From IMG/VR virus record IMGVR_UViG_3300017941_000198: DNA of 38,836 bases. One strand, 5' to 3'. The translations under genes were made by a program, and so were the position numbers. Below are positions 1-38,836 of the stretch, piece by piece. The stretch's first letter is position 1; the number at the start of each line of letters is the position of its first letter. The notes under the pieces are model-generated. The model was not told the origin of the DNA. It did no database searches and was given only the letters and a program-made list of their open reading frames with translations. Source of the DNA: a virus.

Positions 1-2159
1 CATTCAGTAGTGGGAGTTATAATTGAGTTAGCATCTGTGTGAGCGGTAAGCAAGTATTGCGTAGTCCATGAAGCGGTTTCGTTTATGGGGTTATTCATGG
101 TGATTGTGTTGCTTGTGGAGTAGCCACTGTAGCTTCCTGAGCCTTGACCTGCCCAATATGCATTGACATATAGGATTCCTACGCCACCATAAATGTTGTT
201 ATTGGGTAGAACATAGAAGGTTGTAGATGAACCAGAAGCGTACCATCCCCCTCCCGTAGGTGAACCGTATGGGCTTGTGACGGTGAGGTAGTATTGGGTT
301 TGCCAATTAAACGTTATCGTGTGATTCGCTTGTATGTTGCTGAAGAGGTAGCTTGTTCCAGCCGTAGAACCACCGCCATCTATGCTGTAGCCTGTGCAGA
401 TATATTGGGTTCCTGTTGTGCCAGTCCAAGGGCTCGTCACGCCAACAGTAGAGTTGCTGCCTGCGGAGAGGGTTTCGTTTTCTGTTGGTTCTCCATAAGA
501 ACTATACACAGTGATGTTGTAATATTGCGTATAAGTCATCCGCATGTTCCATGTTGCGCCATCAGTGTTGTAAGCGGTTGTTGGGTCTGGAAACGTATTG
601 TATGTTTCGATAAAAATGTATTCTGCGCCTGAATAGGCAAGGTAAAACTTCGCTGTTGTTCCATCGTCCGATTCATAACCTATATAGTAAGTGTGTGCTG
701 CTACAATGTTAGGGCTTCCTATGACTGCAAGGTCATTCCAACCTGCAACAATAGATGTGTTTGCGGTGTAACCTATTTTTCCGCTAAGAGTACCTGTTCC
801 ACCGCCTGTATAAGCAGTATATATAGCTAAAGCGATGTGTCCGCTTGAGGTTGTTTGAACGTTAATTCCTATTGTTGATAAAATTCCAGATGCGCTTGCA
901 GTTATCGCGCATACTCGCATCGTGCCTAATCCCATTGTCAGTTGTGATGATGTGCTTCCTATTGTGTCCGTTGTACTGGATGGCGTACTACTTGAAATGT
1001 TTGAAAACATCGTTATACCGTAACTGTTTAAAACTGTTGGGCTATTGAATGTAAACTGAGCGCTTGGACTGCCAGATGCGCACCACCCTATACTCCTCGC
1101 GTTGCAATAAGCAGTTACATCTGCAAGAAACTGAATGGCGTTCGGACATACTTGGTTGCATCCTAATGCTTCAAACCAAAATGGAATGTTATTAGCGAGA
1201 CAGTAACTCACTTGACCATAAGTATCCATCCAACTTATCCAGTCAGCTTTTCCTTGAGCAAAGTTTCCATTATAGTAATCAGCAGCAAATGGTTCATACG
1301 AGTAACTTGCAGGAGGATAAGTGTACCAGTAATACATGTGATAACATAATATTGTGCCTGAAGGTAACCCAGACATTCCACCAGCAGTAATGAATGGTCC
1401 ATTATCCCAATTAGGCAACCCCATAACCATAACAGTTAAACCAGATTTAACCGCTTTCCATATCGGCACAGCAGTGTTAAGGAAACTTATGTAGCTATTC
1501 ATAAGACCTGTACTTGCATATCCGTACGTTAGTGGTCCAAACGGTTCACTGTAGGCATTAACTATATCGCAATTTGTGTCAGTAATCATTTGCGAAATGT
1601 TTGCGATGTAATTGTTCTGGTTGGCAGTTGTTGACATCATAGTTTGAAATGGAACTCCCATAGTAGCTGATGGTGGCGGGCAAGGTTGAAGGTCAAGCAA
1701 CATCCCTTTCGCATGAAGCTTCGCTGAGAAATCCGCCAATACTGTAGCAAAAGTAGTGCTCTGCCCATTCTTTCCGTTTGCACCAGCATAAAAAATAAAG
1801 CTAGGGGACATATAGCCGAAATTAAAGTATGAACCACTTGTGTAACTGTAAAAAGAGTTCGTGTTAACATCAGAATAAACAAGTACGCTAACAACGTTTC
1901 CGCCAGCGGCTTTCATCGTAGTCAAAAAGCTATCCATTGCTGTACTCCATAAAGCGTAAGTGCTGTATTGTTGCCAGCCTACAAGAATGTCATCGCAACC
2001 GTAATAGGGAGTGCTAACGCCAGTTGCCTTTGCTACTTGAGATGTTTTTGGAACAAGAACCGCAAGCGAACTTAATGATAACAATAGAATAAGAAGCAAA
2101 GAAAAAGCTTTGCTTGATGCTTTGGAACCGAATAAATTTCGTGCCTTGAATGACTTCAA
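1..2159 (-). CDS. Large secreted/virion protein (>719 aa, 3' end outside window): signal peptide, GH5/clan GH-A-like TIM barrel, then beta-rich repeats
   Basis: Not in the ORF track. Translated by hand, open from TTG at 2159 (overlaps TGA of upstream ORF) to the edge. MKSFKARNLFGSKASSKAFSLLLILLLSLSSLAVLVP; motifs VNAYSEP, CYHMY, IPFWFEALG, SIGWC; repeats TQYYNITVYSSYG, TQYYLTVTSPYGSPTGGGWY, TQYLLTA. Confidence 0.85.
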   Translation of the reverse strand, partial: MKSFKARNLFGSKASSKAFSLLLILLLSLSSLAVLVPKTSQVAKATGVSTPYYGCDDILVGWQQYSTYALWSTAMDSFLTTMKAAGGNVVSVLVYSDVNTNSFYSYTSGSYFNFGYMSPSFIFYAGANGKNGQSTTFATVLADFSAKLHAKGMLLDLQPCPPPSATMGVPFQTMMSTTANQNNYIANISQMITDTNCDIVNAYSEPFGPLTYGYASTGLMNSYISFLNTAVPIWKAVKSGLTVMVMGLPNWDNGPFITAGGMSGLPSGTILCYHMYYWYTYPPASYSYEPFAADYYNGNFAQGKADWISWMDTYGQVSYCLANNIPFWFEALGCNQVCPNAIQFLADVTAYCNARSIGWCASGSPSAQFTFNSPTVLNSYGITMFSNISSSTPSSTTDTIGSTSSQLTMGLGTMRVCAITASASGILSTIGINVQTTSSGHIALAIYTAYTGGGTGTLSGKIGYTANTSIVAGWNDLAVIGSPNIVAAHTYYIGYESDDGTTAKFYLAYSGAEYIFIETYNTFPDPTTAYNTDGATWNMRMTYTQYYNITVYSSYGEPTENETLSAGSNSTVGVTSPWTGTTGTQYICTGYSIDGGGSTAGTSYLFSNIQANHTITFNWQTQYYLTVTSPYGSPTGGGWYASGSSTTFYVLPNNNIYGGVGILYVNAYWAGQGSGSYSGYSTSNTITMNNPINETASWTTQYLLTAHTDANSIITPTTE

Positions 2160-2368
2160 CCGCTTTTCTTTTCACGGTTTCCTAAACGGGAAACTTTGCA
2201 ACAAACATCGGCTTCAACAACTAAAATATACTCTTCGCCGTCCGAGTACATTTCAGGCTTGACTTTAACACGGTCAACACCGAGCAAACGTTTACCTTTT
2301 ATCCTAGCAATATTAACTAAATCCTGCATGTCAGCAACTGGACCCCTAATTTTTACAGGTGTCTCCAT
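2156..2368 (-). CDS. Hypothetical protein, 70 aa
   Basis: ATG start; stop overlaps the next start (TTGA). Confidence 0.65.
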   Translation of the reverse strand: METPVKIRGPVADMQDLVNIARIKGKRLLGVDRVKVKPEMYSDGEEYILVVEADVCCKVSRLGNREKKSG

Positions 2369-2469
2369 ACAAGCCCTGACTCATTTACATATTTAACACT
2401 GTTTAAGTATAAATTTTTTACCATTTCTTTTTCGAGTTCTATCATGTTTAACACTTCCGTTATAAACTC

Positions 2470-2871
2470 CTAATCGCTGAAAAAGCGGCCACTGATGAAT
2501 TCTATGAAGAATATGGTTATTAGGAATGCGTAGATTGCTCTTATTGCGTCTGCGATTACTTCAAACGCAAGTTGCCCTTGCGGATCTGTTATGTAACTTG
2601 TCTTTATGAAATCCAGAAACTTTGGCAAGCCATCAATGAGGTACTGTAGGTTCTGGTAAAGATAGCTGAAGCCTGCGAAGATGTCGCCTATTACGGGTAT
2701 GCCACTGAAAGGAGTTCCACCCCAACTAGTAGCGATTTTGGTGCTATTGAATTGCTGCTCATACTGCGTAGCATTCAAACTTGTTCCTGCGGCAACATAA
2801 GCTGTTCCTGGCAAGGCTAAACCCATAACTACGCCTACGCTCAAGTTAATTATGAACAAGCCAAGCAACAA
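2470..2871 (-). CDS. Putative virion membrane protein (hydrophobic N- and C-termini); may start at ATT 2889
   Basis: Hydrophobic ends, sequons NLS/NAT/NST, directly downstream of the spike-like gene. Confidence 0.7.
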   Translation of the reverse strand: MLLGLFIINLSVGVVMGLALPGTAYVAAGTSLNATQYEQQFNSTKIATSWGGTPFSGIPVIGDIFAGFSYLYQNLQYLIDGLPKFLDFIKTSYITDPQGQLAFEVIADAIRAIYAFLITIFFIEFISGRFFSD

Positions 2872-2912: not shown

Positions 2913-4202
2913 TCATGAATAAAGCATCCTTCTTCTTGCGGTTACGATGCCAGCCATGATGCTTAACGCTAAAGCAGTAACCAAGGCTGCGCTTGTTATT
3001 GGAATCCAACCCATCGCCGCCAAAATTATGGCTACAATAGTTGTTAATACTCCCCCTACTTCAGCAGATAATTCGCTGAAGCACCCAGCAACAAAGATGA
3101 TTAGCAAGGCTGGGATCATCCATGCGGTTGATATGGATAATGTGCCGAGGAAGTCTAAGCTAAATGGTGCTGTTGGCGTAGTGTATTCCCCTATCAAATA
3201 CTGTTTATAACTGAAAGACCCAAACGTTAAATGGTCAATGGCGACAGTTACTTCGTAGTTTGTAGCGTTATCAGCATAAGCCCATGTGTAACTAAACGTT
3301 TGATAACCTACGCCTGAAAAGACTTGCATAAAAGCTACTGTGCTGTCAGATGCGTTTGTGATTGTTATGGTTACGCTGTTCGTCATACTGGTTGTGTCTC
3401 CATAGCTTACGGTGATGCTACCAACTGGGTTTAAGAAGTCGCGTACTGCGTAAGCGTGAACGTACTGGTAAAGAAGCAAAGTTTGTTTAGGAAAATCAAC
3501 TCCTCGAAGAACTAGCTGAATTCCAGTGGTTGAAGATGGCGTTAAAAAACCATAAACAATATCATTTGCGTCATTAACTCCATCGCTTAAAACAATACGG
3601 TAACGGTGGCCTTCTTGCAAATTCATGATTACGGTGTTTTGAGCATCAACAGGTCGGTCATCAACGGTTGTGTAATTCATAACCGTATAAGTTGTATCTT
3701 CAATCTGGGCTTTTATAATTGGGTAACTTTTCAATTGCCCTACATAATCTAAAAAGGCAATTGTGTAAGTTGTTAATCCCGAAGTGGCACCCCAAAGAAT
3801 GTATGTGCCTGAAGTTTCAGTAAAGTCTGATTTTAGCCAGTATTCCCTATGGCTTGTAATTGAAAGCCCTGTTGTGTTGTCTGTTATGTCGTAGGCGAAA
3901 TAAATAGGAACAGTAGTGGTGTTAAAGGAGTAACCAGCTCCTCCGTTGCCATTGGTACTGAAAGTATCTGGTGGCGAATTTAGGTAATGCACAGTTACAT
4001 TAACATAAGCTGGGCTTCCATTTTTATATTTCAATGCTACGCCTGTGTTTTCGTCAATTGGTCCATAAAAATGGTAGTTGAATCCTGTTGCTTTAACTTT
4101 TGGGATAGAAGCAAAAGATACAACTAACAAAGTAGCTAGTAAAACTATTGCCATAACACTGAATATTTTTTTAGTACCCAAGTATTTGGCTATTTGGATC
4201 AA
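2913..4202 (-). CDS. Putative virion spike/adsorption glycoprotein: signal peptide, beta-rich ectodomain, about three C-terminal TM helices
   Basis: T/Y/S-rich ectodomain, six N-x-S/T sequons (NVT, NTT, NTT, NYT, NAS, NAT), C-terminal hydrophobic helices; architecture like fusellovirus VP4-type proteins. Start may be TTG 4181. Confidence 0.7.
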   Translation of the reverse strand: MIQIAKYLGTKKIFSVMAIVLLATLLVVSFASIPKVKATGFNYHFYGPIDENTGVALKYKNGSPAYVNVTVHYLNSPPDTFSTNGNGGAGYSFNTTTVPIYFAYDITDNTTGLSITSHREYWLKSDFTETSGTYILWGATSGLTTYTIAFLDYVGQLKSYPIIKAQIEDTTYTVMNYTTVDDRPVDAQNTVIMNLQEGHRYRIVLSDGVNDANDIVYGFLTPSSTTGIQLVLRGVDFPKQTLLLYQYVHAYAVRDFLNPVGSITVSYGDTTSMTNSVTITITNASDSTVAFMQVFSGVGYQTFSYTWAYADNATNYEVTVAIDHLTFGSFSYKQYLIGEYTTPTAPFSLDFLGTLSISTAWMIPALLIIFVAGCFSELSAEVGGVLTTIVAIILAAMGWIPITSAALVTALALSIMAGIVTARRRMLYS

Positions 4203-4446
4203 GCTCCTGACTGTTAATTATGGCCCACAAAATAACGATTACGTCAAATATGGGTCCCCACCAAGTTGCAACAAACTCGACAAGCGTTAACAGGCTAAAT
4301 GCTTGCCCAGTTAAATCTCCCATAGCTTGATAAGCGATTGTTAAGACTACGCCGTTGCAGATGTACCAGCCAACAGTGATTATGAAGAGGCACACGATAG
4401 CGGTGAACCAAACGAACAAGACTCGCGTTAACCAGTCACCTGCCAT
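4171..4446 (-). CDS. Small two-helix hydrophobic protein, candidate capsid/envelope protein
   Basis: 91 aa, two long hydrophobic segments, in the structural operon. Confidence 0.65.
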   Translation of the reverse strand: MAGDWLTRVLFVWFTAIVCLFIITVGWYICNGVVLTIAYQAMGDLTGQAFSLLTLVEFVATWWGPIFDVIVILWAIINSQELDPNSQILGY

Positions 4447-4694
4447 TCAAACCTGTTTGCAATCTTATGCGCATTTTTATAGGATAATCCTCGTTTCATT
4501 AAGTTAGTTTCTACTCCTTCATGGGTACGGAGCTTTAGCTTCTTCGCTGGTGTATCGTATTTGTCGCTTCGTACCCACACTTCGTTTGCAGGAATCTTCC
4601 CTCTTAGCTTCTTTGGCAATTCATTCTTAGGCATGAGTCCATGAAGCGCAATGTAGTCGCCCATTACTTTTTTAGACTTAACCAAGACGCGCAT
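4428..4694 (-). CDS. Basic 88-aa protein with an HExxE...AH motif (possible metal site)
   Basis: THEGVETNLMKRGLSYKNAHKIA. Confidence 0.6.
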   Translation of the reverse strand: MRVLVKSKKVMGDYIALHGLMPKNELPKKLRGKIPANEVWVRSDKYDTPAKKLKLRTHEGVETNLMKRGLSYKNAHKIANRFEWQVTG

Positions 4695-4696: not shown

Positions 4697-4948
4697 TTAG
4701 GTTCTCCGTTGCGCTTCATTGTACCCGTAATAGGCTAGTCCGAGAACCAAAAACGCTAATAAGAACTTCCAGAGGTTATTTATGAAATCGTTAGCTAAAT
4801 TAAAGCTATTCCAGTTTCCAGCCGTTGCAAACTTGTCACTTGAAAGTTGATTATTGAAACTTTCTTGCACTGCCTGCACAGCGGTTGCATAGAAAAACCA
4901 CATGGCTCCAACTATGACAAGCGCCATAATTACCACTACGAAATACAT
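4697..4948 (-). CDS. Candidate major capsid protein of spindle-shaped-virus type (hydrophobic helix hairpin); probable extension to ACG 4990
   Basis: Two hydrophobic helices joined by an N/S-rich linker and a basic C-tail; in-frame upstream ALKRFRRNQQG|LL resembles a prepilin-like leader. Confidence 0.55.
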   Translation of the reverse strand: MYFVVVIMALVIVGAMWFFYATAVQAVQESFNNQLSSDKFATAGNWNSFNLANDFINNLWKFLLAFLVLGLAYYGYNEAQRRT

Positions 4949-4980
4949 GAGTAAGCCTTGCTGGTTTCTGCGGAAACGTT

Positions 4981-7734
4981 TTAGCGCCGTCTTCTTGTTT
5001 GCCTCCTGCTCTTGGTTGCTTGCTTCCTTCTCTGTTTAGTTGCTTGTTTAGGCTTGAAAGCTTTAATCATTTTGTTCGCATTCTTCTCAATGTTCCGCAT
5101 AGGCTTCCCCATGCCTCCGACACCGAAGGTTTTAAGCATTTGACTGTAAGTCTTAATCTTGTGCTTCTTGAGATACCATTTACCGCCAAACATATTTTTT
5201 GGACCAAGATTATCAAAACCACCACCTAAACCAAAGGCAGGCATCTTTGGAAAAGTCTGCTTAGAAACATTTGGAAACTTTGGAAATACAGAGGTTGGTA
5301 CTGTTCTCGGTATTTGTCGGGGAACTAGAGTAGGAGTTAATTTAGGAATTAGAATAGGAGTTGTTTTCGCTATAGTTATCGGTGTTGTTCTCGGAATTTG
5401 GAAAGGGGTTATTTTAGGAATTTGAACAGGAATTAAACTAGGCATTGTTTTTGCTATAGTTACAGGTTTCGTTATAGGTGTTATTGTAGGAATCCTTATC
5501 TGAGATTGCCTTTGATTGAAAGTTGGAATCAATGATTGCTCTTGTCCTTGTCTTTGCGTGACACCCAGAATATTCCTTGTTTGAGTTATAGAAGAAGCAA
5601 TTATTTTAGGAGAAGCTAATCCAGAATTTGGATAAACCAAAAATGATGTTTCTTCTTCGTCGGCTTGTGTTGAAAATATATGCGGTGTTAGGAAGCCAGA
5701 GATTTTAAATTTTGGAGCAGTCAATTTAGCTTCACCAATTATAGCACGTGGCAAAGCAACCTCTTTAGGCTCTGTTGTAGCCTGAATAAGTTTAGTTACA
5801 TCCGGTGCATTAACATTTAAAGAAGTATCTTCTGCGGCATTTTTGAAAAACTTGTTTGAACCAGTCTGCATAGCTCCTGACAAATCTTTAGGCGCTTGAC
5901 TTCCATAATCAACGATGGGTCTGTAATTTCCACCTAACTGTTTATAGATATTTTGCGCTAAATCCTCAGGAAGAGACTTAGCAATATCCGCAACGTTTAC
6001 CTCATCAGGAATGCCTCTGATTTTTACTCCAGTAAAATCTCTAAAGCTAATCTTGGTTTCAGGCAAAATAGCTTCTTCCGATGTAACAATTGTCTTCTCA
6101 GCATATACGGCTGGAGGTTGACCTTTCGTTAAGTCAATAGTTACTTTAGTCCGTTGAATCGCGGGCATATCTGAAGGAGTCTCTAAGAAGTCATTTACGT
6201 TTCCAGTTTTTGCTATAGCTAACTTATAATTGCCATTTCGCTCAAGTGCCGCAAGAAGTGGATCCCCTTTACGGATTGATTCAACTTGTCTTAGAATTGG
6301 GATTGGTTCAAGTTCTTTGCCGCCTATCTCCATGTTAGGCTGATAGACTTTTTCGGTTCCTGCTAAATCAACAACTGGATTCTGAAGTGTCTTAAGATTA
6401 TATTCTTTGTAATAGGAAACATCTTTGCCCCGTAAAGTTACCGTTTCAATGTCAGGTTCTGTAAGTTGACCGATAATGGTTTCTTTTCCGAAAGTGTTTT
6501 GTGCTGAAAGTTCTTTGACGCTTGTTAACTCCTCAAACTTTACACCAATAATATTGTCGCGTATGGTGCCAATTACTCTTTGACCCGTATCTGTTGCCCT
6601 AATCTTTCCACCTACAGCTCCAACAACTTCTCCTGCCGCGCCAAATGCTGCGCCGAACTCTGCACCTTGAATTATCGCTTGAGAATTACCAAGACTTAAT
6701 ATGGCGTTGCCACCTGCGCCTAACCCAGCATTAAGACTTATCCGTGTTGCAGCACGAACAATCGGGTTAGCAACGTCACCAGCTAATTGAGGTGCAACCT
6801 CGCCGATAGCGCCCAAAGCTCCAGCACCAATAATACCAAATGCTGCGCTATATGCAGCGACATCAAGAACTTCTTTAGGTGAAGCAGGCAAAACTAAACT
6901 TGCTTGTCCAGTCGCAAAAGACTTAGTTGCAGATTGAATTCCTATGTTTGCACCTTCCCCAATCGCTATGCTCGGAATAACAATTTCAGGTGCAACTGCC
7001 GCAGTAATGGCGATTCCTCCAGCTTCAGCAACTAAAGCCTTGGTTGAAGGAGGATTGTTAAACGCTGACAAAGGATTCTTTGTGGGTGTCGTTACACGGG
7101 TAAAAAGAGTGGCACTTAAGCCACCTGCTGGGTAAGCAGAATTTATTTGTTTTATGTAATTAATTTTATCTTGAAGCGGAATATACGCAGGCGCACCTAA
7201 CGCTAAAGCTTCTTCATTAGAAGATGGGTAAGAAGTGACATCCGCTATTTCCTTGTCTCTTTCTTGAATCTGCTCTAGTGTTAATGGAACTATAACTTGC
7301 TTTGTGTATGTAGTTGATTTTTCTCCTACTGGATTAACAATGCTTAAATTCGATGCGAAAGGTTTGCCACCTATATTTGATATGTCATTGTAGATTGTGT
7401 TTCCAGCGTTGCCAATTGCTTGACCTGCATTGCTTATGGCACTTGATATTGTACCAAGAAGGCTAGATGTTTTTGGTGCAGGAGTTGGCGTTGTTGGTGC
7501 TGGTGTAACGCTAACTTCAGGAGTAACCGCTGGATTCCCCAAAGGAGTTGTTGGGCTTCTACCTACCCCTGCCGAATATGGAGATTGCGCTACTGGCGGT
7601 GCTGCTTGAGCTTTAGCCATGTTCGCGTTCTGTATAGCCATAGCACTGTTATATTGATCTTGCGTAATCGTGCCAGAAGTTAAGGCTTGCTGAAAAACAG
7701 CGTTCTGCGCTTGAATCTGAGCAACCGTGCTCAT
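4981..7734 (-). CDS. 917-aa putative internal/structural protein: P/T-rich N-terminus, G/A-rich hydrophobic helices, IPxxTP repeats, K/R-rich tail
   Basis: GGAG RBS 11 nt upstream; GAGLGAGG and GAEFGAAFGAAG segments; tail KQRRKQATKSRRQTRRRR. Confidence 0.85.
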   Translation of the reverse strand: MSTVAQIQAQNAVFQQALTSGTITQDQYNSAMAIQNANMAKAQAAPPVAQSPYSAGVGRSPTTPLGNPAVTPEVSVTPAPTTPTPAPKTSSLLGTISSAISNAGQAIGNAGNTIYNDISNIGGKPFASNLSIVNPVGEKSTTYTKQVIVPLTLEQIQERDKEIADVTSYPSSNEEALALGAPAYIPLQDKINYIKQINSAYPAGGLSATLFTRVTTPTKNPLSAFNNPPSTKALVAEAGGIAITAAVAPEIVIPSIAIGEGANIGIQSATKSFATGQASLVLPASPKEVLDVAAYSAAFGIIGAGALGAIGEVAPQLAGDVANPIVRAATRISLNAGLGAGGNAILSLGNSQAIIQGAEFGAAFGAAGEVVGAVGGKIRATDTGQRVIGTIRDNIIGVKFEELTSVKELSAQNTFGKETIIGQLTEPDIETVTLRGKDVSYYKEYNLKTLQNPVVDLAGTEKVYQPNMEIGGKELEPIPILRQVESIRKGDPLLAALERNGNYKLAIAKTGNVNDFLETPSDMPAIQRTKVTIDLTKGQPPAVYAEKTIVTSEEAILPETKISFRDFTGVKIRGIPDEVNVADIAKSLPEDLAQNIYKQLGGNYRPIVDYGSQAPKDLSGAMQTGSNKFFKNAAEDTSLNVNAPDVTKLIQATTEPKEVALPRAIIGEAKLTAPKFKISGFLTPHIFSTQADEEETSFLVYPNSGLASPKIIASSITQTRNILGVTQRQGQEQSLIPTFNQRQSQIRIPTITPITKPVTIAKTMPSLIPVQIPKITPFQIPRTTPITIAKTTPILIPKLTPTLVPRQIPRTVPTSVFPKFPNVSKQTFPKMPAFGLGGGFDNLGPKNMFGGKWYLKKHKIKTYSQMLKTFGVGGMGKPMRNIEKNANKMIKAFKPKQATKQRRKQATKSRRQTRRRR
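5281..5520 (-). repeat. Degenerate protein-level repeat (IP-x-x-TP) in the 917-aa protein
   Basis: IPTITPITKP...IPKITPFQIPRTTPITIAKTTPILIPKLTPTLVPRQIPRTVP. Confidence 0.7.
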
Positions 7735-7853
7735 TTACGTTTTTTCTCCTTTCTTGTTTGTCGGCTAGCTTGCTGTGCTATTCGCCAGTATTCTCTAATG
7801 ATTGCTGGAGAATTACCGCCTAAAGGTCTTCCGCGTTGTTTCTTTTGTTTCAT
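7731..7853 (-). CDS. 40-aa basic peptide with an AT-hook-like RGRP; first gene of the structural operon
   Basis: Hand translation MKQKKQRGRPLGGNSPAIIREYWRIAQQASRQTRKEKKRK; TGA overlaps ATG 7734. Confidence 0.6.
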   Translation of the reverse strand: MKQKKQRGRPLGGNSPAIIREYWRIAQQASRQTRKEKKRK

Positions 7854-7868
7854 TCTTCCACAGTTATA

Positions 7869-7895
7869 TTGTCAATGACAAAGCTTATAAGCTTT
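7869..7895. promoter_or_regulatory. Bidirectional promoter: perfect palindrome AAAGCTTATAAGCTTT plus adjacent inverted repeat TTGTCA-A-TGACAA
   Basis: Palindrome at 7880-7895 is centred on TTATAA, about 35-37 nt from both divergent ATGs (7853, 7925); IR at 7869-7881. Confidence 0.7.
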
Positions 7896-7924
7896 ACTCA
7901 CTCTATAAGATTTGTTGAAAACAC

Positions 7925-8131
7925 ATGCCAAAACGAGACACAGAAGATTGGAGTGATGGCGTACACTTTATTGACAAAGAGTTAGAGAAGGTCAACGCAA
8001 AAGTTAGAGCCAAAACTTTCAATTCGATGCCTCGCTACAAAAACGAAACGCCATTACAGCACCTAACAAGAGCAAATATTGAATTTCAAAAAAGGAAGAA
8101 ACAGAGAAATGCTTATGGGAGAATAATTTAA
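7925..8131 (+). CDS. Small basic protein
   Basis: First ORF after the promoter; basic C-terminal half. Confidence 0.7.
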   Translation: MPKRDTEDWSDGVHFIDKELEKVNAKVRAKTFNSMPRYKNETPLQHLTRANIEFQKRKKQRNAYGRII

Positions 8132-8132
8132 A

Positions 8133-8345
8133 ATGGTTAGTAAATGGATTCAAAAAGCAAGTAACCCACGCAAAAAAGGAGCATTACACAAGCAACTCGG
8201 AATCTCGCTGGATAAGAAGATTCCTAAAGCTACGTTGCATAAGATTGTTAAAGCTAAGGTCGGCAGCAAGGTGCATGGAAAAACCGTAACCACAACAATG
8301 AAAAGACGGGCCTTGTTTGCGATTAATGCGCAAAAAAGGAGATAA
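8133..8345 (+). CDS. Fusellovirus VP2-like basic DNA-binding nucleoprotein
   Basis: KWIQKASNPRKKGALHKQLG resembles the SSV1 VP2 N-terminus (recalled as KWVQKAIKRPG); 20/70 K+R, one acidic residue. Confidence 0.65.
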   Translation: MVSKWIQKASNPRKKGALHKQLGISLDKKIPKATLHKIVKAKVGSKVHGKTVTTTMKRRALFAINAQKRR

Positions 8346-8357
8346 GGTGCAACACAA

Positions 8358-8504
8358 ATGAGTATCTTTGAAATTGAAGGTAAAAAACCAAAAAATTATC
8401 ATGGACCAACCCATTATAAAATAACTGATATGGGCTTTAGTTATGTTGGTATTCACTCTACTAAGCAAACTAAAAGGAAAACAAAAAAGCGAAAACGGAG
8501 ATAA
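8358..8504 (+). CDS. 48-aa protein with a K/R-rich tail
   Basis: Hand translation MSIFEIEGKKPKNYHGPTHY...KQTKRKTKKRKRR; fills the gap in the operon. Confidence 0.6.
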   Translation: MSIFEIEGKKPKNYHGPTHYKITDMGFSYVGIHSTKQTKRKTKKRKRR

Positions 8505-8509
8505 AAGTT

Positions 8510-8725
8510 ATGAGTTGGAGAAAAGAGAAATCTGAGCATCCTTGGGCAACCAAGATGCAAGCTAAACGCATAGCCCATGACCATGCCGTAAAAAAGAAAA
8601 GCACACGCCACCCAAAAGGTAAGGGTTCAAGTGCAATTCAAACAGCCAAGAAAGACTTCACTAGCTTAGAGGCTGGAGCAAAAAGAATCACATACGGCAA
8701 ACACGAAGCCGAAAAGGTGTTTTAA
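8510..8725 (+). CDS. Small basic protein
   Basis: KEKSEHPWATKMQAKRIAHDH; K-rich; operon-coupled. Confidence 0.7.
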   Translation: MSWRKEKSEHPWATKMQAKRIAHDHAVKKKSTRHPKGKGSSAIQTAKKDFTSLEAGAKRITYGKHEAEKVF

Positions 8726-8726
8726 A

Positions 8727-9065
8727 ATGGCTTGGATTTGGGATCCTAACGCTCGCAGAAGAAAAAAGCAGAAGGAAGATTTAGACAAAGACTATTACAA
8801 GCGCCAAAAAGTCTATAATGCCTCTAAAGAGAAAGAGCGAGAAAGAATCGCGGCTTTAAGAGGTAAACAAGACGCACAGAAAATAGCTAACCGTAAACCG
8901 TTTTACCAGAAGCTCATGGGCGCATTCGCCAACATTGGAAAAGACCTTGTGGCGCAAAGCGGAAACGTTAAGCCTAACGCGCTTTTCACATGGGATACGC
9001 CTAAGAGGCAACGTAAAAGAAAAGGCAAACGCAGAACCAAAAAGGAAAAGGAGGTTGAGTTATGA
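8727..9065 (+). CDS. K/R-rich protein, 112 aa
   Basis: RRRKKQK and KRQRKRKGKRRTKK clusters. Confidence 0.75.
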   Translation: MAWIWDPNARRRKKQKEDLDKDYYKRQKVYNASKEKERERIAALRGKQDAQKIANRKPFYQKLMGAFANIGKDLVAQSGNVKPNALFTWDTPKRQRKRKGKRRTKKEKEVEL

Positions 9066-9382
9066 GTTCTATAGGAAACAAAATTGCTAACCGCTTCATC
9101 CGGTATCGGAATGAGTGGGTGAGAAATCCGCAAAAGAAGAGGAAAGAGTTATATGTGAAAGCCAAAAAAGTGGGCAGTTACATGAACCAAGTTGGCGTTA
9201 ATGTCGTACATAATGTTATGACTGATGCCCCGTCTGATATGATGCCTTTTAGAATGCCACAGCAAACTAGGTCCCGCGAAAGCAGGCGAGTAAGTCAAGT
9301 AAGACGGCGACGCGAGAGAATCGAGCGGAGAGGTAGAAAAAAGAGGCAACGTCAATCATCCAATCCATACCCGCTAATATAA
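9062..9382 (+). CDS. Arg-rich (protamine-like C-terminus) protein, 106 aa
   Basis: RSRESRRVSQVRRRRERIERRGRKKRQRQ; ATGA overlap. Confidence 0.75.
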   Translation: MSSIGNKIANRFIRYRNEWVRNPQKKRKELYVKAKKVGSYMNQVGVNVVHNVMTDAPSDMMPFRMPQQTRSRESRRVSQVRRRRERIERRGRKKRQRQSSNPYPLI

Positions 9383-9591: not shown

Positions 9592-9795
9592 TCATTCATA
9601 AATAGTGAACTCGTTTGCATACCATTTGAAAAATAAAAATAAGCCAATACCTAATGACCCAAAGCCTACAACCGTACTCATAAAGAAGAGTGCGAACAAC
9701 CCCATGAAAGCAAGAACCATTGCAATAAATAAAGTTATCATTGCTAAAATAAGCAAAAAAAGAATGCGACTTACTTCATCTATTTTCTTTTTCAT
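9592..9795 (-). CDS. Small two-TM membrane protein
   Basis: Hydrophobic, coupled by ATGA overlap. Confidence 0.65.
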   Translation of the reverse strand: MKKKIDEVSRILFLLILAMITLFIAMVLAFMGLFALFFMSTVVGFGSLGIGLFLFFKWYANEFTIYE

Positions 9796-10004
9796 TGTTG
9801 TTTGTTCTCCTTTCCAACATGTGTAACTAGAAGATTACAGTGTATAAAGTAAAGGCTAACGCCGACTGATATTGAGATAAACGTATTAAATAATAATGGA
9901 AGATTATAGAGGTATAGCAAAACAAAAAGTATTCCCGAATAAACCAAGCCGAATAAAGCTACACGCCAAAGCCTTAATTGAATACACTCACGAATAGAAA
10001 GCAT
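9792..10004 (-). CDS. Small two-TM membrane protein
   Basis: Hydrophobic, operon-coupled. Confidence 0.6.
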   Translation of the reverse strand: MLSIRECIQLRLWRVALFGLVYSGILFVLLYLYNLPLLFNTFISISVGVSLYFIHCNLLVTHVGKENKQQ

Positions 10005-10130
10005 TATTTGTTTTCCTCTTCTTGTTGTTTCTTTTCTGCCCTCAACCGCTTAAGTTCCTCTCGCTCCCTCTTCCGATAATCACACACACTGATACACCTT
10101 CTGCCTCACAGGATCCTTGTAAGGAGTCAT
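10004..10130 (-). pseudogene. Small basic ORF interrupted by a frameshift in a (TG)n tract
   Basis: MTPYKDPVRQKVYQCV* then DYRKREREELKRLRAEKKQQEEENK* in another frame; junction is CACACACAC at 10081-10089. Confidence 0.45.
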
Positions 10131-10450: not shown

Positions 10451-10532
10451 TTTTACGGTGACTTCCTTTGTTCATTTATTATATATGCGAAAGCTAATCC
10501 GATTAGGAAAGCTATTTCTATTATTATTTCAA

Positions 10533-10775: not shown

Positions 10776-10776
10776 T

Positions 10777-11126: not shown

Positions 11127-11130
11127 TATT

Positions 11131-25898: not shown

Positions 25899-25901
25899 TT
25901 T

Positions 25902-27786: not shown

Positions 27787-27787
27787 T

Positions 27788-28366: not shown

Positions 28367-28417
28367 CGTTTTAATTTTTTCTTTCGGCTTTAAGGTTATG
28401 ATCGCTATATCGAGCAG

Positions 28418-29764: not shown

Positions 29765-29780
29765 TCTTTAACTTTTTGCT

Positions 29781-30776
29781 TCAATCAAACTCACCTATTA
29801 ATTCTGGATTATCAAAACATTTCTCGCAATAATAATTGCCGTCAACAGGGTTGAACATCACTTTTGTAACTGTCATCCCACAGTCTGAACATTGATAATG
29901 TTTCTGTCTACTTGGACCTTTAAGTAAACCCCATGCGTAATAAAATCTGATAAGAGGATGAATGTAAGTTACTGTAGCATCTCTTGTTTTAAGAGCTACA
30001 AAGAGTCCGCTGAAAGGCGCAAGAAACAGCCGGTAAATAACACTCCAAGTGTTAACTGGAGATTTCATCTGGATCTTACTCATTGCTCGCCAAATATCTT
30101 TAATCTGAGTGCCATACCAACGTTGCCTTTCCAATTCATCAAATAAACCTTTCCGCAAGTGAATGCTTTGAACATTATAATCTACCTTCCAATTGTAGCC
30201 ATACTTTTTTAATGTCCAAGCTAATACTGTATCGACACCAGCATTAACATTCATAACTGGAAACCCGCCAATTTTTCGCATAACTTCTGTGCGGTAAATT
30301 GTGTTATCTAAAGTCTTACCTAAAGTAAAAGCGTTAGCTTCTCGACTGCGAAGCCATGGGCTTAATTGTTCACCGCGATACTTCTTAGCCACATACTTGA
30401 AAAGCGTAGTCATGCCTTTTGGCTGAGAAACAAAACGCATTCCACTACTAGCAGCCAAATCAGAATCAAAGAACGGCATAGCAACTTTGCTCCACCAATC
30501 CTTAGCTAAAATAACATCTTGCTCGAAACTACAAAAAACCTCTGTTTCAACATATTTTAAAGCTGTGTTAGCTCCATCACTAATTCCAGAGCCCTTGTTT
30601 AAGTAAACATCCCAACCTTTAGCTGAAGCTATATCTCTCGTAGCATCTGCGCTTCGATCATCAACAATAAATTTGTCGTGAACAACTTTTTTAGGGATGA
30701 CTTGGTTGATTCTATCTAAAACTGTACCAAGAGTCCTCTCACCATTTCGAGTCCACATACAAATATCTATTTGCAC
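29781..30776 (-). CDS. GT2 glycosyltransferase with a C-terminal Zn finger
   Basis: IDICMWTRNGERTL, FIVDDRSADAT, SFEQD; CSDC...CEKC; GTG 30776 preferred as start. Confidence 0.85.
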   Translation of the reverse strand: MQIDICMWTRNGERTLGTVLDRINQVIPKKVVHDKFIVDDRSADATRDIASAKGWDVYLNKGSGISDGANTALKYVETEVFCSFEQDVILAKDWWSKVAMPFFDSDLAASSGMRFVSQPKGMTTLFKYVAKKYRGEQLSPWLRSREANAFTLGKTLDNTIYRTEVMRKIGGFPVMNVNAGVDTVLAWTLKKYGYNWKVDYNVQSIHLRKGLFDELERQRWYGTQIKDIWRAMSKIQMKSPVNTWSVIYRLFLAPFSGLFVALKTRDATVTYIHPLIRFYYAWGLLKGPSRQKHYQCSDCGMTVTKVMFNPVDGNYYCEKCFDNPELIGEFD

Positions 30777-30780
30777 TTTT

Positions 30781-31836
30781 TCACAACCACCCTTTAAGGT
30801 GTAGGTACATGATTCCGGTAACACACACCGCTACATAAGAAACGAGCAAAACAAGAAGCCACCAATATTCACGCTTCATCATCTTCCCATTAAATCTTAA
30901 ACCAATTCTACTTGCTAAATTGTATAAGTGAAATCCCAGTGACTTCAGAAACATCGGTACGCCATCCTTAAAACTCCGTTGCAAACTAAACAGTAAAAAT
31001 ATTCTTCCGCGCAGGGTTAACGGAACATAAAATCGTTTAATCTCTACTTTTTTGAAACCATTATTTCTTTTAAACACATCAAGACTTGGATGATTGCCCA
31101 TACGAGCATAAACAAGCCAATGCAAATTCCTATCAGAACATATTTTTACAGCCTTCGCAATCAAAGCATTATTCGGCATCACATCACGAAAAGAAACTAA
31201 ACTCAATATTTGACCAAAGACACCTGTATCTTCTCCACATTGAAGTTCAACAAAACCAACCAACTTATGCTTGAGAAATACATCTCCATCCGACTTTTCT
31301 TCTACCCAAATATACGCGCCTATAATGATGTTGTCAGTTGTAAACACATGTTGCTGTACACTTTCTAATGAAACCCCATAATGGTTAAATCGTCTAAATT
31401 GCCGGATAGGAGTCTCATTATAAATCTTCCAAATACCCTCTGCTAATTTAACTCCTTCTTTCACATCACTAAACGGCGATGAACGCGCATTCGGATCAAT
31501 AATTTTAACTTCAAGCCCTTTTTCTCTCGCCTTCATAAGCCGCGTCTTTGTTTCTTTCGGCAGTTGCTTCAACCAATCTTCATAACTATCAAACTCTGCG
31601 GCAGCAACATTATCACGGCAAACTTTAGCTTTAAACGGAACATTATAAAACTCGTTACACCAAGTTCTCTCGCAGAAATTTAACACATCTATCTCTTTTG
31701 ATTGAAAACTTTTAGGGCTAGGGCAGAAATCCTGTAAGTATTCTGTTGGGCTCTTTCCTATTGTGGCAAATAATTTTCTGTTTAAAACCAATGATTGTGT
31801 TTGGCACTCACGTTCAGCCTCAAGAGACAAACCCAT
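30781..31836 (-). CDS. FemAB/GNAT-fold acyltransferase-like protein with a C-terminal TM helix
   Basis: KTRLMKAREKGLEVK, IYNETPIRQ, NNALIAKAV, LDVFKRNNGF; ATG 31836 overlaps upstream TGA. Confidence 0.75.
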   Translation of the reverse strand: MGLSLEAERECQTQSLVLNRKLFATIGKSPTEYLQDFCPSPKSFQSKEIDVLNFCERTWCNEFYNVPFKAKVCRDNVAAAEFDSYEDWLKQLPKETKTRLMKAREKGLEVKIIDPNARSSPFSDVKEGVKLAEGIWKIYNETPIRQFRRFNHYGVSLESVQQHVFTTDNIIIGAYIWVEEKSDGDVFLKHKLVGFVELQCGEDTGVFGQILSLVSFRDVMPNNALIAKAVKICSDRNLHWLVYARMGNHPSLDVFKRNNGFKKVEIKRFYVPLTLRGRIFLLFSLQRSFKDGVPMFLKSLGFHLYNLASRIGLRFNGKMMKREYWWLLVLLVSYVAVCVTGIMYLHLKGWL

Positions 31837-32228
31837 CAAGTTGCAACCTCCTTGAACTGCCAAACTTTAGAATCATGCCGCTGAGGCAATGTCTCATAAT
31901 GTTTCTTGCAAAATCTATGCTCTTTTTTACTTAGAAGATTTATTCCAGCAACGGCAGCTTTAAGTTTGCAGGAATTAATGGAACATTTACCAAGTGAAGT
32001 TAATTTGGTTTGGTCATAGTTAACTAATGTTGTTTGAGGATTGCCACCTTGATCTAAATGATGTTGCACAAACAAAAGTCGGATAGCTTCTCGAAGTAAA
32101 TCACCAATTTCTAAATCATCCTGGATAGCTAATTTTTTAAGATTTCTTATAATTCCTTCGTCTTCAATGTTCTTAGCCTTGAATGTAGCATACTTGAGCT
32201 TACTATTGATGTCTGGTAATTTCGTCAT
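31836..32228 (-). CDS. RHH-like regulator fused to a Zn finger
   Basis: LKKLAIQDDLEIGDLLREAIRLL; CSINSC...FCKKH. Confidence 0.65.
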   Translation of the reverse strand: MTKLPDINSKLKYATFKAKNIEDEGIIRNLKKLAIQDDLEIGDLLREAIRLLFVQHHLDQGGNPQTTLVNYDQTKLTSLGKCSINSCKLKAAVAGINLLSKKEHRFCKKHYETLPQRHDSKVWQFKEVAT

Positions 32229-37456: not shown

Positions 37457-37576
37457 ATGACTGAAGAATGGACTCCTGAAGATGAAGCTAAACTCAAAGA
37501 GTTACGCCGTAGAAAAGCTAAACAAATCCGAGATCAAACAAGGCAAAGAAAATATACACTGAGAAAGAAAAATTGA
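37457..37576 (+). CDS. 39-aa basic helical peptide convergent on the integrase
   Basis: GGAG RBS; MTEEWTPEDEAKLKELRRRKAKQIRDQTRQRKYTLRKKN. Confidence 0.55.
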   Translation: MTEEWTPEDEAKLKELRRRKAKQIRDQTRQRKYTLRKKN

Positions 37577-37579
37577 AGG

Positions 37580-38755
37580 CTATTTCTTATCCTTGTTTTT
37601 GTCTTCACCTTTTAAGTGCTCAGGGTCATTAACATGGATAAGTTCCTTAGCTTTCAATAAATCCCTGACTTCCCGAAACAGAGGAAGCTCTTTCATAAGT
37701 TCTTTGACATTATCAATATCATCCTTTGTGAGTCCAACCATAGAACCGTCAACCCTGTTCGAATCATTCAAGCATAAAAGTGGGTAAACCTTTTTCATAG
37801 CCTCAATTAACCGAAACTCCATCTTATCTTGGCTGCCATATTCATGTTCAATGCTGGAAGTGTGACCCATCAAAGCCTCCTTAACCTTACTATAAATTTC
37901 TGCGTCACAAAGGGCATCCTCGAAAGCGTCTCGCAGACTAGTTGGCTTAAATCCCTCAACAGAACCGAAACCAGCTTTAATGATTAATTCACGCACAACC
38001 TGACTGACCCCCTGATTATCAAGTGGACCCTCACGACCAACAAGCAAAGGCTCACCAACCTTGCCTTTCTTAATCATTACTTTACCTTTTTTAACGATTA
38101 CGTAAGCCTTCAAACAATCGCATACGTCGGGAGTAGAAACGCCACGCCAAACCTCGCCTGTCTTGCTCCGGCTAAACTCAAAATAGACCCAGGGCTCAAC
38201 TGGATAATCGCCAACCCTTAAGGCAGCAACATCTACTGGTGCAGGTCCATTCTGGTAAATAACTGCGACGATAAACTTGTCTCTGGCAGAGTCAGCGTGA
38301 GCAAACAAGCTTCGGACATCCTCGTTGCATGGCGAAAACTTGCGGGTTTTCCTTGCTTTCGGGTACTTCAGCCTTCGCAAATCCAAGCTTAATCGGTGGC
38401 TGTTGTTGCTGAAGAATCCTTGAATCCTGCCGATGTGACCGCTTATAGACAGGTTCTTGCTGACTAAGGTTTTGATGTAGGCTTTCGTTTTGCGCTCGTA
38501 CCTTTCGTTATCGGTTACGTCGAAACTTGTCAAATCACTTTTTCGATTGGCAATCACTGCGTCTGGGTCTTCCCCTAAAAAGAGGAAGTAGTATGGCAAA
38601 ACACGCCTGTAAGTTCTCTGAGTAGATTTATTGAGCCCTTCAATTGCCCGTTTATAGCAATCGTATTCTTCTATGGGTTTACCGAATTTTTCAAGGAACA
38701 GTTTGCGTCCTGTGCCGTCCTTAAGAGCTCTTGGGATAGTTTCTTTTCTTCGCAT
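37580..38755 (-). CDS. int: Tyrosine integrase (full length, non-canonical active site)
   Basis: RDKFIVAVIYQNGPAPVD, RSKTG, PTSLR, MGH...HEY; N-terminal core-binding helices. Confidence 0.85.
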   Translation of the reverse strand: MRRKETIPRALKDGTGRKLFLEKFGKPIEEYDCYKRAIEGLNKSTQRTYRRVLPYYFLFLGEDPDAVIANRKSDLTSFDVTDNERYERKTKAYIKTLVSKNLSISGHIGRIQGFFSNNSHRLSLDLRRLKYPKARKTRKFSPCNEDVRSLFAHADSARDKFIVAVIYQNGPAPVDVAALRVGDYPVEPWVYFEFSRSKTGEVWRGVSTPDVCDCLKAYVIVKKGKVMIKKGKVGEPLLVGREGPLDNQGVSQVVRELIIKAGFGSVEGFKPTSLRDAFEDALCDAEIYSKVKEALMGHTSSIEHEYGSQDKMEFRLIEAMKKVYPLLCLNDSNRVDGSMVGLTKDDIDNVKELMKELPLFREVRDLLKAKELIHVNDPEHLKGEDKNKDKK

Positions 38756-38836
38756 GGCGATTTCCCCAGAGGCGAATTAGCGTACCGCAGAGATATAGCG
38801 TTTGCCATATTGAAGCGGTGAACTGCATTTTGTACA

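Follow-up and report, generated by a model that had tools for sequence, protein, structure and literature searches.

Is the stretch of DNA analysed here, a window of 38,836 nucleotides, the free genome of a large spindle-shaped archaeal virus, as the initial annotation proposed? The first part of this question has a clear answer. The window is neither a whole genome nor a free contig: it makes up the right-hand ~77% (38,836 bp) of a 50,099-bp integrated element with host flanks and an attachment core. The 12-bp direct repeat TGTACAAAATGC stands at both bounds of the element, and the window ends with this repeat, at 38825..38836, where TGTACAAAATGC stands as its reverse complement on the plus strand. 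The same 12 bp are exactly common to attL, attR and a tandem (attP-like) junction. In peat-derived Bathyarchaeia MAGs the element has the gene of an AsnC-type regulator on one side and pyrG on the other. On one related complete chromosome attB is empty, and the alignments of the two flanks (95-97% identity) overlap there by the 12 bp of the core and no more. Insertion takes place at this core by conservative site-specific recombination, and that the element is a site-specific integrating one is certain.

One 412-kb contig carries the element twice in tandem, the copies showing no difference across the 26,635 bp that were compared, and a contig of 50,111 bp, which is the element plus one core, occurs in 13 samples. 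The element thus occurs both singly, as a prophage, and as a dimer in tandem. It is nearly unchanged across many samples, and its ATPase is indexed in identical form in 106 sample blocks. Its state is that of an integrated and apparently active provirus rather than a free contig. The probable integrase, judging from its sequence and position, is the XerA-like two-domain tyrosine recombinase of 391 aa encoded beside the attachment site (37580..38755, minus strand), whose gene starts 82 nt from the core; it matches the XerA model NF040815 at 3.2e-11 over residues 31-300, and its Pfam match is weak. The other tyrosine recombinase, of 216 aa and with the catalytic domain only, adjoins the ATPase gene (16729..17379, plus strand; Pfam 2.5e-13, phrog_216 1.5e-20, XerA model 2.9e-23). 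Both had been recognised in the initial annotation, which these matches confirm.

A Bathyarchaeia-like host had also been suggested earlier. This holds, on the evidence of flanking host genes and not of the clues used then: AlaS, TiaS and PyrG carry Bathyarchaeia names at NCBI, and the closest AlaS sequences come from SPRUCE, bog and Microflora Danica Bathyarchaeia MAGs. By these genes the host is a peat Bathyarchaeia archaeon. It is probably Bathy-6/Baizomonadales-like, since AlaS is 85% identical to that of one Baizomonadales MAG.

Is the element a virus? In terms of sequence its best viral signal is the ATPase. The plus-strand region 15137..16575 encodes a 130-aa protein and then a 348-aa P-loop ATPase (15529-16575) of the fusellovirus B251 or 'DnaA-like' type, with 33 homologues and a putative C-terminal wHTH. 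The earlier reading of this gene as a P-loop ATPase is supported by phrog_5484 (E 1.5e-10) and by an hhalign match to SSV1 B251 at 95.5% probability (E 1.4e-8); the values for His1 ORF16 and HRPV-1 VP8 are 24% and 1.7%. Genes resembling B251 are also carried by virus-dependent plasmids, e.g. pSSVx. Neither Pfam nor PHROGs finds an HK97 or double-jelly-roll capsid, a portal or a terminase across all 50 kb, so that what had been said of the window is equally true of the 11 kb outside it. No replication protein was identified in the element, nor did particle, virome or CRISPR-spacer evidence for a virus come to light.

The candidate for the major capsid protein is an 83-aa helix-turn-helix hairpin (4697..4990, minus strand). 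Its ORF of 83 aa (4697-4948) begins at the ATG at 4948; ahead of it lies an in-frame conserved basic leader, which is kept across the family and here has no ATG, GTG or TTG start. An AF2 model (pLDDT 78) has helices at residues 2-35 and 43-82, and hydropathy agrees. The family has 42 cluster representatives, and with 65-82% identity among relatives this is the most conserved protein of the element, its place between the large protein and the adhesins being kept. A second hydrophobic hairpin protein of 91 aa with two TM-like segments (4171..4446, minus strand) may be another capsid protein or a membrane protein; it is 65% identical in the relative L119, where it directly follows the first hairpin gene, and no paralogy to the 83-aa protein is detectable.

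The AF2 model of the 83-aa protein and hydropathy thus bear out the two small hydrophobic hairpin proteins noted at the outset. The proposed check against SSV1 and His1 capsid proteins, on the other hand, gave no link by sequence or fold. With hhalign the 83-aa family reaches 0.3-13% probability against SSV1 VP1 or VP3 and 7.8% against His1 VP21; the 25 families that the Pfam scan lists for its members include neither PF06281 nor PF25665, and fold searches return generic helical hairpins only. The ESM Atlas puts two named clusters closest, VP1_VP3 and His1_capsid, each at 0.79; we take this as a lead only. In genome G040 a 97-aa hairpin homologue directly adjoins a B251-like ATPase, and elsewhere in that genome the hairpin gene stands alone amid host genes. 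The hairpin topology of the two proteins fits a spindle-virus capsid protein, without a detectable sequence relationship to SSV1 VP1/VP3 or His1 VP21.

Directly upstream of the capsid candidate, and overlapping its ORF, lies the gene of a 917-aa protein (4981..7734, minus strand; net charge +28) whose hydrophobic centre is rich in Gly/Ala and whose C-terminal tail is rich in Arg/Lys. It has no significant family match and is 40% identical over 737 aa in L119, where its position is unchanged. Next to it, 7731..9382 encodes a set of small, very basic proteins, one of 40 aa on the minus strand and five, of 68, 70, 71, 112 and 106 aa, on the plus strand; with net charges of +7 to +22 they are candidates for DNA condensation. 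The cluster has no PHROG match, and in L119 the 71- and 112-aa proteins are 49% conserved. The 70-aa member is the 'VP2-like' nucleoprotein of the initial annotation. It is indeed very basic (20 K+R), but its resemblance to VP2 is marginal, the similarity to SSV1 VP2 being a 19-residue N-terminal stretch at a pairwise E of 0.009; the protein has no PHROG or Pfam match, and its gene is absent from L119. Another basic protein, of 88 aa (4428..4694, minus strand; net charge +12), lies outside the conserved core and is probably host-derived: L119 lacks it, while several Bathyarchaeia chromosomes, among them that of the provirus-free G001, match its gene at 74-77% nucleotide identity.

The surface proteins follow in the same conserved order, as L119 keeps the succession of large protein, two hairpins, glycoprotein, membrane protein and adhesin. 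The glycoprotein-like adhesin or spike of 429 aa (2913..4202, minus strand) has an N-terminal signal/TM segment, three FN3/Ig-like beta-sandwiches and three C-terminal TM helices (AF2 pLDDT 80.8; 44 homologues). The sequon-rich spike with three C-terminal TMs was correctly seen from the start, except that there are seven N-x-S/T sequons and not six. VIA gives Z 8-9 to FN3 domains, and BFVD returns viral fibre and structural proteins, including one of a Nitrosopumilus spindle-shaped virus, at low TM-scores. A 133-aa membrane protein of the conserved structural block (2470..2871, minus strand), with TM segments at both ends by hydropathy, is 72% identical to its L119 counterpart. At 1..2159 (minus strand) the window holds the N-terminal 719 of 959 aa of a secreted adhesin with a signal peptide, an enzyme-like domain and beta-sandwich repeats; the ORF runs off the edge, leaving the C-terminal 240 aa with the TM anchor beyond it. 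The full gene (L012, 1957-4836) has a C-terminal hydrophobic block and 11 sequons. The protein has no match in Pfam, PHROG or PDB, and against L119 only its C-terminal 113 aa are conserved (64%). Altogether the element encodes at least five secreted or anchored proteins.

Farther along the minus strand, 9592..11916 encodes small membrane proteins with one to three TMs each by hydropathy, one of which (88 aa, 11650-11916) is 48% identical in L119. The conserved block adjoining the ATPase (12286..15004, minus strand) comprises putative morphogenesis genes for a 359-aa polytopic membrane protein and for proteins of 105 aa, 239 aa (two TMs) and 155 aa; identity in L119 is 60-64%, and Pfam, PHROG and NCBIfam have no match.

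So many small TM proteins, a spike-like protein with signal peptide and TM anchors, and hairpins that have no sequence link to spindle capsid proteins would also suit a virus that is not spindle-shaped, with a pleomorphic enveloped or otherwise new virion whose host-derived membrane carries anchored glycoproteins and small membrane proteins. We regard this as quite unlikely, given that the ATPase fits SSV1 B251 far better than pleolipovirus HRPV-1 VP8 (1.7%), that the 429-aa family reaches 0.3% against VP4 by hhalign, and that HRPV-1, with 7 kb, is several times smaller than the 50 kb found here. Pleolipovirus genomes generally are several-fold smaller than 50 kb.

The large enzymatic cargo described initially is real. 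A protein with a ParB N-terminal domain (23267..23962, minus strand; Pfam 2.5e-17) is followed by a 7.7-kb glycan or modification cassette (24121..31863, minus strand), in which Pfam and NCBIfam identify two SAM methyltransferases, two GT2 enzymes, a GT-like protein, a radical SAM and a B12-binding radical SAM protein, beside a 360-aa protein of unassigned function. The same searches give no support for the FemAB-like and PH-like genes proposed earlier, nor for a GT-C reading.

Does this cargo indicate a non-viral integrative element, i.e. an integrated plasmid or cell-surface island, moved by a tyrosine recombinase, that mainly provides its host with surface glycoproteins and glycan-modifying enzymes and whose hairpins are ordinary membrane proteins? 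No capsid protein is recognised, secreted or anchored proteins (at least five), the cassette and ParB are prominent, host chromosomes contain relatives, at the nucleotide level, of the adhesin repeats and of the 88-aa gene, the hairpin gene of G040 also stands alone amid host genes, and IMG/VR has no match, meaning that standard virus callers did not flag the element. Against this, the B251-type ATPase is a spindle-virus hallmark, the very basic cluster suits DNA condensation, the most conserved gene is the hairpin, kept in place between large protein and adhesins, and neither VirB4/VirD4 conjugation nor plasmid replication genes appear in any ORF of at least 200 aa. On balance we find the non-viral explanation unlikely.

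Rather, we consider it reasonably probable that the element is a temperate virus and that its lineage is new, probably at the level of a family. The fuller reading, a 50,099-bp temperate virus-like element of peat Bathyarchaeia with a morphogenetic module of the fusellovirus kind, we favour at a little better than even chances. The XerA-like recombinase beside the core would integrate it. The genes from the adhesins through the ATPase would form the morphogenetic module: a hydrophobic, membrane-like capsid shell would be built from the 83-aa protein, possibly together with that of 91 aa, the basic cluster and the Arg-rich tail of the 917-aa protein would condense the DNA, and the ATPase would power, at the membrane, either assembly or the loading of DNA. 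The proteins of 429, 959, 303 and 1223 aa, which are TM-anchored and rich in sequons, may be terminal fibres or adhesins; the glycosylation and methylation cassette would decorate them or the host surface, and exit would be by budding, not lysis, like that of known spindle-shaped viruses. The spindle shape itself is unproven. Because the hairpins cannot be linked to SSV1 VP1/VP3 or His1 VP21, this reading rests on the ATPase and on protein topology; of the spindle-type gene set first proposed, the fusellovirus-type ATPase, the hairpins and the lack of HK97/DJR proteins stand, while the capsid link to spindle viruses does not.

How does the element compare with known systems? Neither IMG/VR nor the deposited genomes of phages and archaeal viruses contain a match to it, in agreement with its being unclassified, and its sequences place it in none of the classified families testable here. 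Size by itself, however, does not mark out a new lineage: predicted spindle viruses above 50 kb are known, and those of ANME-1 (Itzamnaviridae, tepeuvirus PBV144) reach 72.6 kb in PBV144 (PMC9894754). These too are metagenomic, with mesophilic-to-thermophilic archaeal hosts and a structural and an enzymatic arm, but the ATPase, 917-aa and hairpin proteins have no sequence match in any deposited virus genome. Fuselloviridae (SSV1) likewise have an ATPase of the B251 type that lacks a TM domain (hhalign 95.5%), small and hydrophobic capsid-like proteins of two helices, a basic VP2-like protein, a temperate life with a tyrosine recombinase, no HK97/DJR capsid and, it is to be expected, glycosylated structural proteins. 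SSV1 differs in size (15.5 kb against 50.1 kb), in VP1 and VP3, to which the hairpins are not detectably homologous, and in an annotated integration site inside the integrase gene, which here is intact beside a 12-bp intergenic core; the mesophilic Bathyarchaeia host and the large enzymatic arm are further differences from the family. Halspiviridae (His1) resemble the element in an ATPase annotated with a C-terminal HTH, a single ~73-aa capsid protein with two TM segments, a glycosyltransferase, and structural proteins with signal peptide and TM anchor, but have a linear 14.5-kb genome and protein-primed PolB, and by hhalign the ATPase reaches only 24% and the capsid protein 7.8%.

The Huangdiviridae are a classified family of Bathyarchaeia spindle viruses with a similar gene kit and 26.6 kb (PMC10848311, PMC12451623), among them Xuanyuanvirus yandi, or Bathyarchaeia Huangdivirus 1 (QMYA01000001; PMC10848311). 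Could the element be a divergent, enlarged member, a spindle-shaped provirus of Baizomonadales Bathyarchaeia? Compared by description only, both are Bathyarchaeia proviruses of kindred arrangement, with the host order probably shared (as the 85% AlaS identity suggests), an integrase of ~208-216 aa (~208 in Huangdivirus) beside a B251-like ATPase, a VP2-like basic protein, a large protein followed at once by a ~90-aa hairpin protein, polysaccharide-active adhesins, GT2 and a class I methyltransferase. Huangdivirus, however, is about half the size (26.6 against 50.1 kb), comes from a deep-sea vent and not from peat, has an AEP primase-MCM that the element lacks, and its ATPase is 235 aa long, against 348 aa with an extra C-terminal domain here. 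Its VP1 and VP3 were recognised by HHblits as fusellovirus-like, whereas the hairpins here are unrecognisable with the tools used. Membership in this family therefore appears improbable to us, and it is as a new lineage, kindred to Huangdivirus in its arrangement, that we prefer to regard the element.

The stretch proved to be the right-hand part of a larger, sharply bounded element. By exact look-up, its proteins are found in a 412,749-bp JGI contig, in a 236-kb contig of the NCBI MAG GCA_050010995.1 and, from independent assemblies at JGI and ENA, in several contigs of 50-72 kb. Over the 37,832 positions compared, a single difference separates the window from the 412-kb contig. In that contig the gene for the 391-aa recombinase is present twice, at a spacing of 50,099 bp. 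Upstream of the first copy are host genes (GrpE, AlaS, a glycosyl hydrolase, TiaS, two AsnC-type regulators and an LPG-synthase-like protein), and the second copy is preceded by the element's own far end and followed by host sequence with pyrG, a CBS protein, NikR, ZnuABC and rubrerythrin. Compared base by base, the three junction types (attL, attR and tandem) have in common a core of exactly 12 bp, TGTACAAAATGC, and diverge on both sides of it; the last 12 bases of the window are this core. Since the core bounds the element at attL, at attR and at the tandem junction, the element is 50,099 bp long, with about 11.3 kb of it to the left of window position 1. A contig of 50,111 bp, the length of the element with one core added, is known from 13 samples, and the tandem copies are identical across the comparable 26.6 kb.

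The insertion can also be judged from a site that lacks it. The complete related chromosome OY970280.1, whose AlaS is 96% identical, is without the element and has the order host-left, one core, host-right; its flanks align at 97% and 95-96% identity, and they overlap by exactly the 12-bp core. This empty attB is that of G001, a provirus-free Bathyarchaeia relative. An empty site with a single core and an exact overlap of the flanks is direct evidence of a precise site-specific insertion, and empty, single and tandem states have all been seen. No tRNA was found at the junctions; the core is intergenic, and the gene for the 391-aa XerA-like protein lies 82 nt from it. With recombinase and attachment site both in place, this is a site-specific integrating element of the tyrosine recombinase type. 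Its precise integration, as a unit of 50.1 kb, in peat Bathyarchaeia is established, and the element is apparently active.

Several observations concern the surroundings of the insertion site and the ends of the element. L012, a locus that holds the part of the element left of the window together with attR and the host flank (coordinates are its own), has an integrase-like gene of 468-479 aa with a weak Phage_integrase match at 23315-23672, in the host flank about 8 kb past attR; the region may thus be a hotspot of integration or contain a second mobile element. In G001 (locus L150, G001:C1:1062000-1080000) the gap between AlaS and TiaS is about 15.4 kb, versus 2.5 kb, and the wider gap points to a separate insert, about 13 kb in size, that lies within a few kb of the empty attB. 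About 1 kb within the element from attR, beyond the window, a 12-nt unit, GGNGTTGGNGNN, is repeated in degenerate form over about 400 bp (L012 13993-14393). Gene callers read this array as a Gly/Val-repeat protein of 223-227 aa; it could also be non-coding, a set of iterons close to the attachment site. At the other boundary, the adhesin repeat region at window 241-442 has 70-77% nucleotide identity to genes of several Bathyarchaeia genomes, and the assembly may have broken at the left end of the window because this end falls within the adhesin repeats.

Bathyarchaeia are among the most abundant archaea of anoxic sediments and peat, and routine growth of them is not yet possible. The initial annotation proposed a Bathyarchaeia-like host on account of FemAB-like, PH-like and InlB-like genes. 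None of these clues has Pfam or NCBIfam support, and the host itself is borne out by other evidence: the flanking AlaS, PyrG and glycosyl hydrolase bear NCBI names from 'Candidatus Bathyarchaeia archaeon' MAGs, and the closest AlaS proteins (85-96% identity) come from Bathyarchaeia MAGs named SPRUCE, bog_990, bog_991, Microflora Danica and 'Bathy6'. One MAG with a close AlaS, PLSP, is classed in Baizomonadales (PMC10848311). The GC content is 38.9% in the element versus 42% in the flanks. When the first 20 kb of the window were compared as DNA with 301 family-level genomes in search of CRISPR spacers, the matches were short (27-39 nt), and none of the four that were checked lies in a repeat array.

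The window holds about 65 plausible genes and no tRNA, at a GC content of 34-43% in 2-kb windows, and many of these genes recur elsewhere. L119, a related 41.7-kb contig from another sample, shares genes with the element in the same order at 40-75% identity: those of the 155-, 239-, 359- and 88-aa proteins, two basic proteins, the 40-aa and 917-aa proteins, both hairpin proteins discussed below, the 429- and 133-aa proteins, the C-terminus of the adhesin and several genes of the 11-kb arm. The element thus belongs to a family and is not a singleton; contigs bearing ATPase relatives are 39-56 kb long. L119 lacks the VP2-like gene and the 88-aa basic gene (4428-4694). Part of the latter, at window 4569-4667, has nucleotide matches of 74-77% in at least seven Bathyarchaeia genomes, G001 included; the gene appears to have been acquired recently, either from the host or from some other element.

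In tblastn searches of the deposited genomes of phages and archaeal viruses, the ATPase, the 83-aa protein and the 917-aa protein each gave no match or only noise. Nothing was found in IMG/VR with either the 917-aa protein or the profile of the ATPase, or in a GTDB pattern scan with this profile. An HMM search of 401 Bathyarchaeia species genomes with the ATPase profile gave four clear and five weak matches, on contigs that share with the element the ATPase alone and, in one case, also ParB. A metagenome scan with the profile of the capsid candidate returned five loci, four of them short.

Family searches agree with the earlier description of two tyrosine recombinases and a large enzymatic cargo: the 391-aa recombinase matches the archaeal XerA model across both domains and the 216-aa one is a catalytic domain alone, and there are a ParB_N protein, two class I SAM methyltransferases, two GT2 glycosyltransferases with a weak third GT, and two radical SAM enzymes, one of them B12-binding. 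MazG-like, M50B-like, RHH and HxlR-type matches are weak. The 11 kb beyond the window add the TM-anchored C-terminal end of the 959-aa adhesin, an HNH-like protein, a holin-like two-TM protein, a 303-aa Ig-like TM protein and a Big_3_5 protein. They also encode a 1223-aa protein (L012 10001-13672) with a signal peptide, a lectin-like N-terminus, a C-terminal TM anchor and 20 sequons, in which about 850 residues consist of repeats of about 28 residues rich in Ser, Leu, Thr and Phe; no family in Pfam, PHROGs or PDB resembles it. PDB sequence searches with the ATPase profile, the ATPase C-terminus and the 959-aa and 1223-aa proteins gave nothing useful.

With so many surface proteins and glycan enzymes, it is possible that the element is a non-viral surface island; the ATPase and the hairpin proteins speak for a virus. 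A conjugative element we reject, as VirB4/TraC-type and VirD4-type conjugation ATPases have no Pfam match within the 50 kb, where a single P-loop protein, of 348 aa, was found. This protein matches phrog_5484, 'DnaA-like replication initiation protein' (E 1.5e-10), the name also borne by the records of SSV1 B251 and His1 ORF16. Aligned by hhalign, its profile of 20 sequences reaches 95.5% probability against the SSV1 ATPase B251 (E 1.4e-8, over the region from Walker A to Walker B), 24% against His1 ORF16 and 1.7% against pleolipovirus VP8. It is hence an AAA+ ATPase of the B251/His1 ORF16 type, without a TM domain, and the ATPase assigned to the window at the outset is confirmed. In the literature such an ATPase, a terminal adhesin and a small capsid protein with two TM segments are regarded as the morphogenetic core of spindle-shaped viruses (bioRxiv 10.1101/2021.07.29.453957).

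The candidates for the capsid protein are two small hydrophobic hairpins, which had been pointed out from the sequence and are upheld by hydropathy for both and by an AF2 model for the first. The 83-aa protein (4697-4948) is modelled as helices 2-35 and 43-82 (pLDDT 78), so that it has the two hydrophobic helices, the short loop and the length (about 70-100 aa) of a spindle capsid protein, a likeness of topology. It is the most conserved protein of the element, with 65-82% identity in 28 relatives (45-81% for the ATPase), and its family, in a set of 1.84 billion proteins, counts 42 cluster representatives. The second hairpin is the 91-aa protein (4171-4446), with undetectable paralogy to the first. 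In most members of the 83-aa family a basic leader of about 15 residues, ending in Gly, precedes the first helix. The leader in the window (4949-4990, minus strand) is in frame and conserved (..LKRFRRNQQG LL..), and it contains no ATG, GTG or TTG; ACG stands at the expected start, and one relative has TTG. The next ATG is the start of the hydrophobic helix, and the stop of the 917-aa gene falls within the leader frame. Judging by the sequence, either the gene would use a non-canonical start or the protein would be leaderless in this lineage.

An independent linkage comes from G040, a Bathyarchaeia genome in which a 97-aa homologue of the 83-aa protein adjoins a 275-aa B251-like ATPase. G040 has two near-identical 97-aa homologues: at L128 (G040:C184, 2740-3876) the gene forms with the ATPase a two-gene pair amid host genes, and at L129 (G040:C219, 8452-8745) it stands alone between nitroreductase-like and histidine kinase genes. 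These copies may be remnants or domesticated.

The comparison with known spindle capsid proteins, suggested in the initial annotation, did not join the candidate to them. Against single-sequence templates, hhalign gives the 83-aa family 0.3-13% for SSV1 VP1 or VP3 and 7.8% for His1 VP21. Pfam lists no match of the window protein to VP1_VP3 (PF06281) or His1_capsid (PF25665) at E up to 1, and neither is among the 25 families that Pfam lists for 31 members of the family. Its model has no Foldseek match in PDB and nothing under E 4 in BFVD, and VIA-align returns unrelated generic helical hairpins with Z up to 9, so that the fold speaks neither for nor against a relationship. In the ESM Atlas the two closest named clusters are VP1_VP3 and His1_capsid, at a score of 0.79, which we take only as a lead. 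The proposed spindle shape is thus supported by the ATPase match and the hairpin topology and not by membership of the capsid sequence in PF06281 or PF25665. A non-spindle virion is possible.

Among the other structural candidates, the 429-aa protein has three FN3/Ig-like sandwiches preceded by a signal segment and followed by three TM helices, with 7 sequons (pLDDT 81), so the sequon-rich spike with three C-terminal TMs holds; its model lies closest to fibre and structural proteins of viruses, with low TM-scores. A strongly basic character is shared by the tail of the 917-aa protein and six small proteins, five of them encoded on the plus strand and one on the minus strand. For the protein called VP2-like, composition and a 19-residue motif agree with the name and profiles give it no support. 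ESM Atlas scores for the 917-aa protein are low only. No HK97 or double-jelly-roll capsid, portal, terminase or packaging ATPase has a Pfam or PHROG match among the large ORFs of the whole 50 kb, at a level of detection short of remote homologues; the absence noticed in the window therefore extends to the flanking 11 kb, and we reject Caudoviricetes and Varidnaviria on the canonical capsid, portal and terminase.

In our opinion the element is most likely a temperate virus, and its genes and models suggest a fusellovirus-like morphogenesis with a capsid-protein family so far unrecognised. We also entertain, as a rather doubtful conjecture, a wider joint reading. According to it the element would found a new family or higher taxon of temperate archaeal viruses, with a capsid family unrelated by descent to VP1 and His1 (a hairpin with a short basic pilin-like leader), a multi-protein nucleoprotein core, several TM-anchored fibres and its own glycan-tailoring pathway with a cobalamin radical SAM enzyme, and would be an abundant virus, unrecognised so far, of the Bathyarchaeia that dominate northern peat. 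Many peat metagenomes carry the element almost unaltered, and virus catalogues have overlooked it. It provides a concrete virus-host pair in a lineage central to carbon cycling, together with a new candidate family of capsid proteins, and a provirus with a large surface-glycan toolkit could change how its host appears to other viruses and to its surroundings.

It remains to place the element among known groups. Pleolipoviridae are rejected, with hhalign values of 0.3% for the VP4-type spike and 1.7% for the VP8-type NTPase. So are Fuselloviridae sensu stricto: in these, genomes are small and integration splits the integrase gene (in SSV1 the attachment site is annotated inside int), whereas the element has 50.1 kb, an integrase ORF that is intact when integrated and an intergenic core. 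A length above 38.8 kb with a large enzymatic cargo had been taken as a possible sign of a new lineage. Genome size is not diagnostic, since the spindle-shaped viruses predicted for ANME-1 include one of 72.6 kb, and structural and enzymatic arms are known from Itzamnaviridae genomes (PMC9894754).

To our knowledge, only a single genome of a spindle-type virus has so far been assigned to Bathyarchaeia. The family Huangdiviridae has been classified on a single 26.6-kb provirus in a Baizomonadales Bathyarchaeia MAG, in which an integrase of about 208 aa adjoins the spindle-virus ATPase, a large protein is followed by VP1, and there are a VP2-like protein, polysaccharide-lyase adhesins, a GT2 and a methyltransferase (PMC10848311). 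Judged from its published annotation table, Huangdivirus 1 (QMYA01000001) has a kit of gene types much like that of the element.
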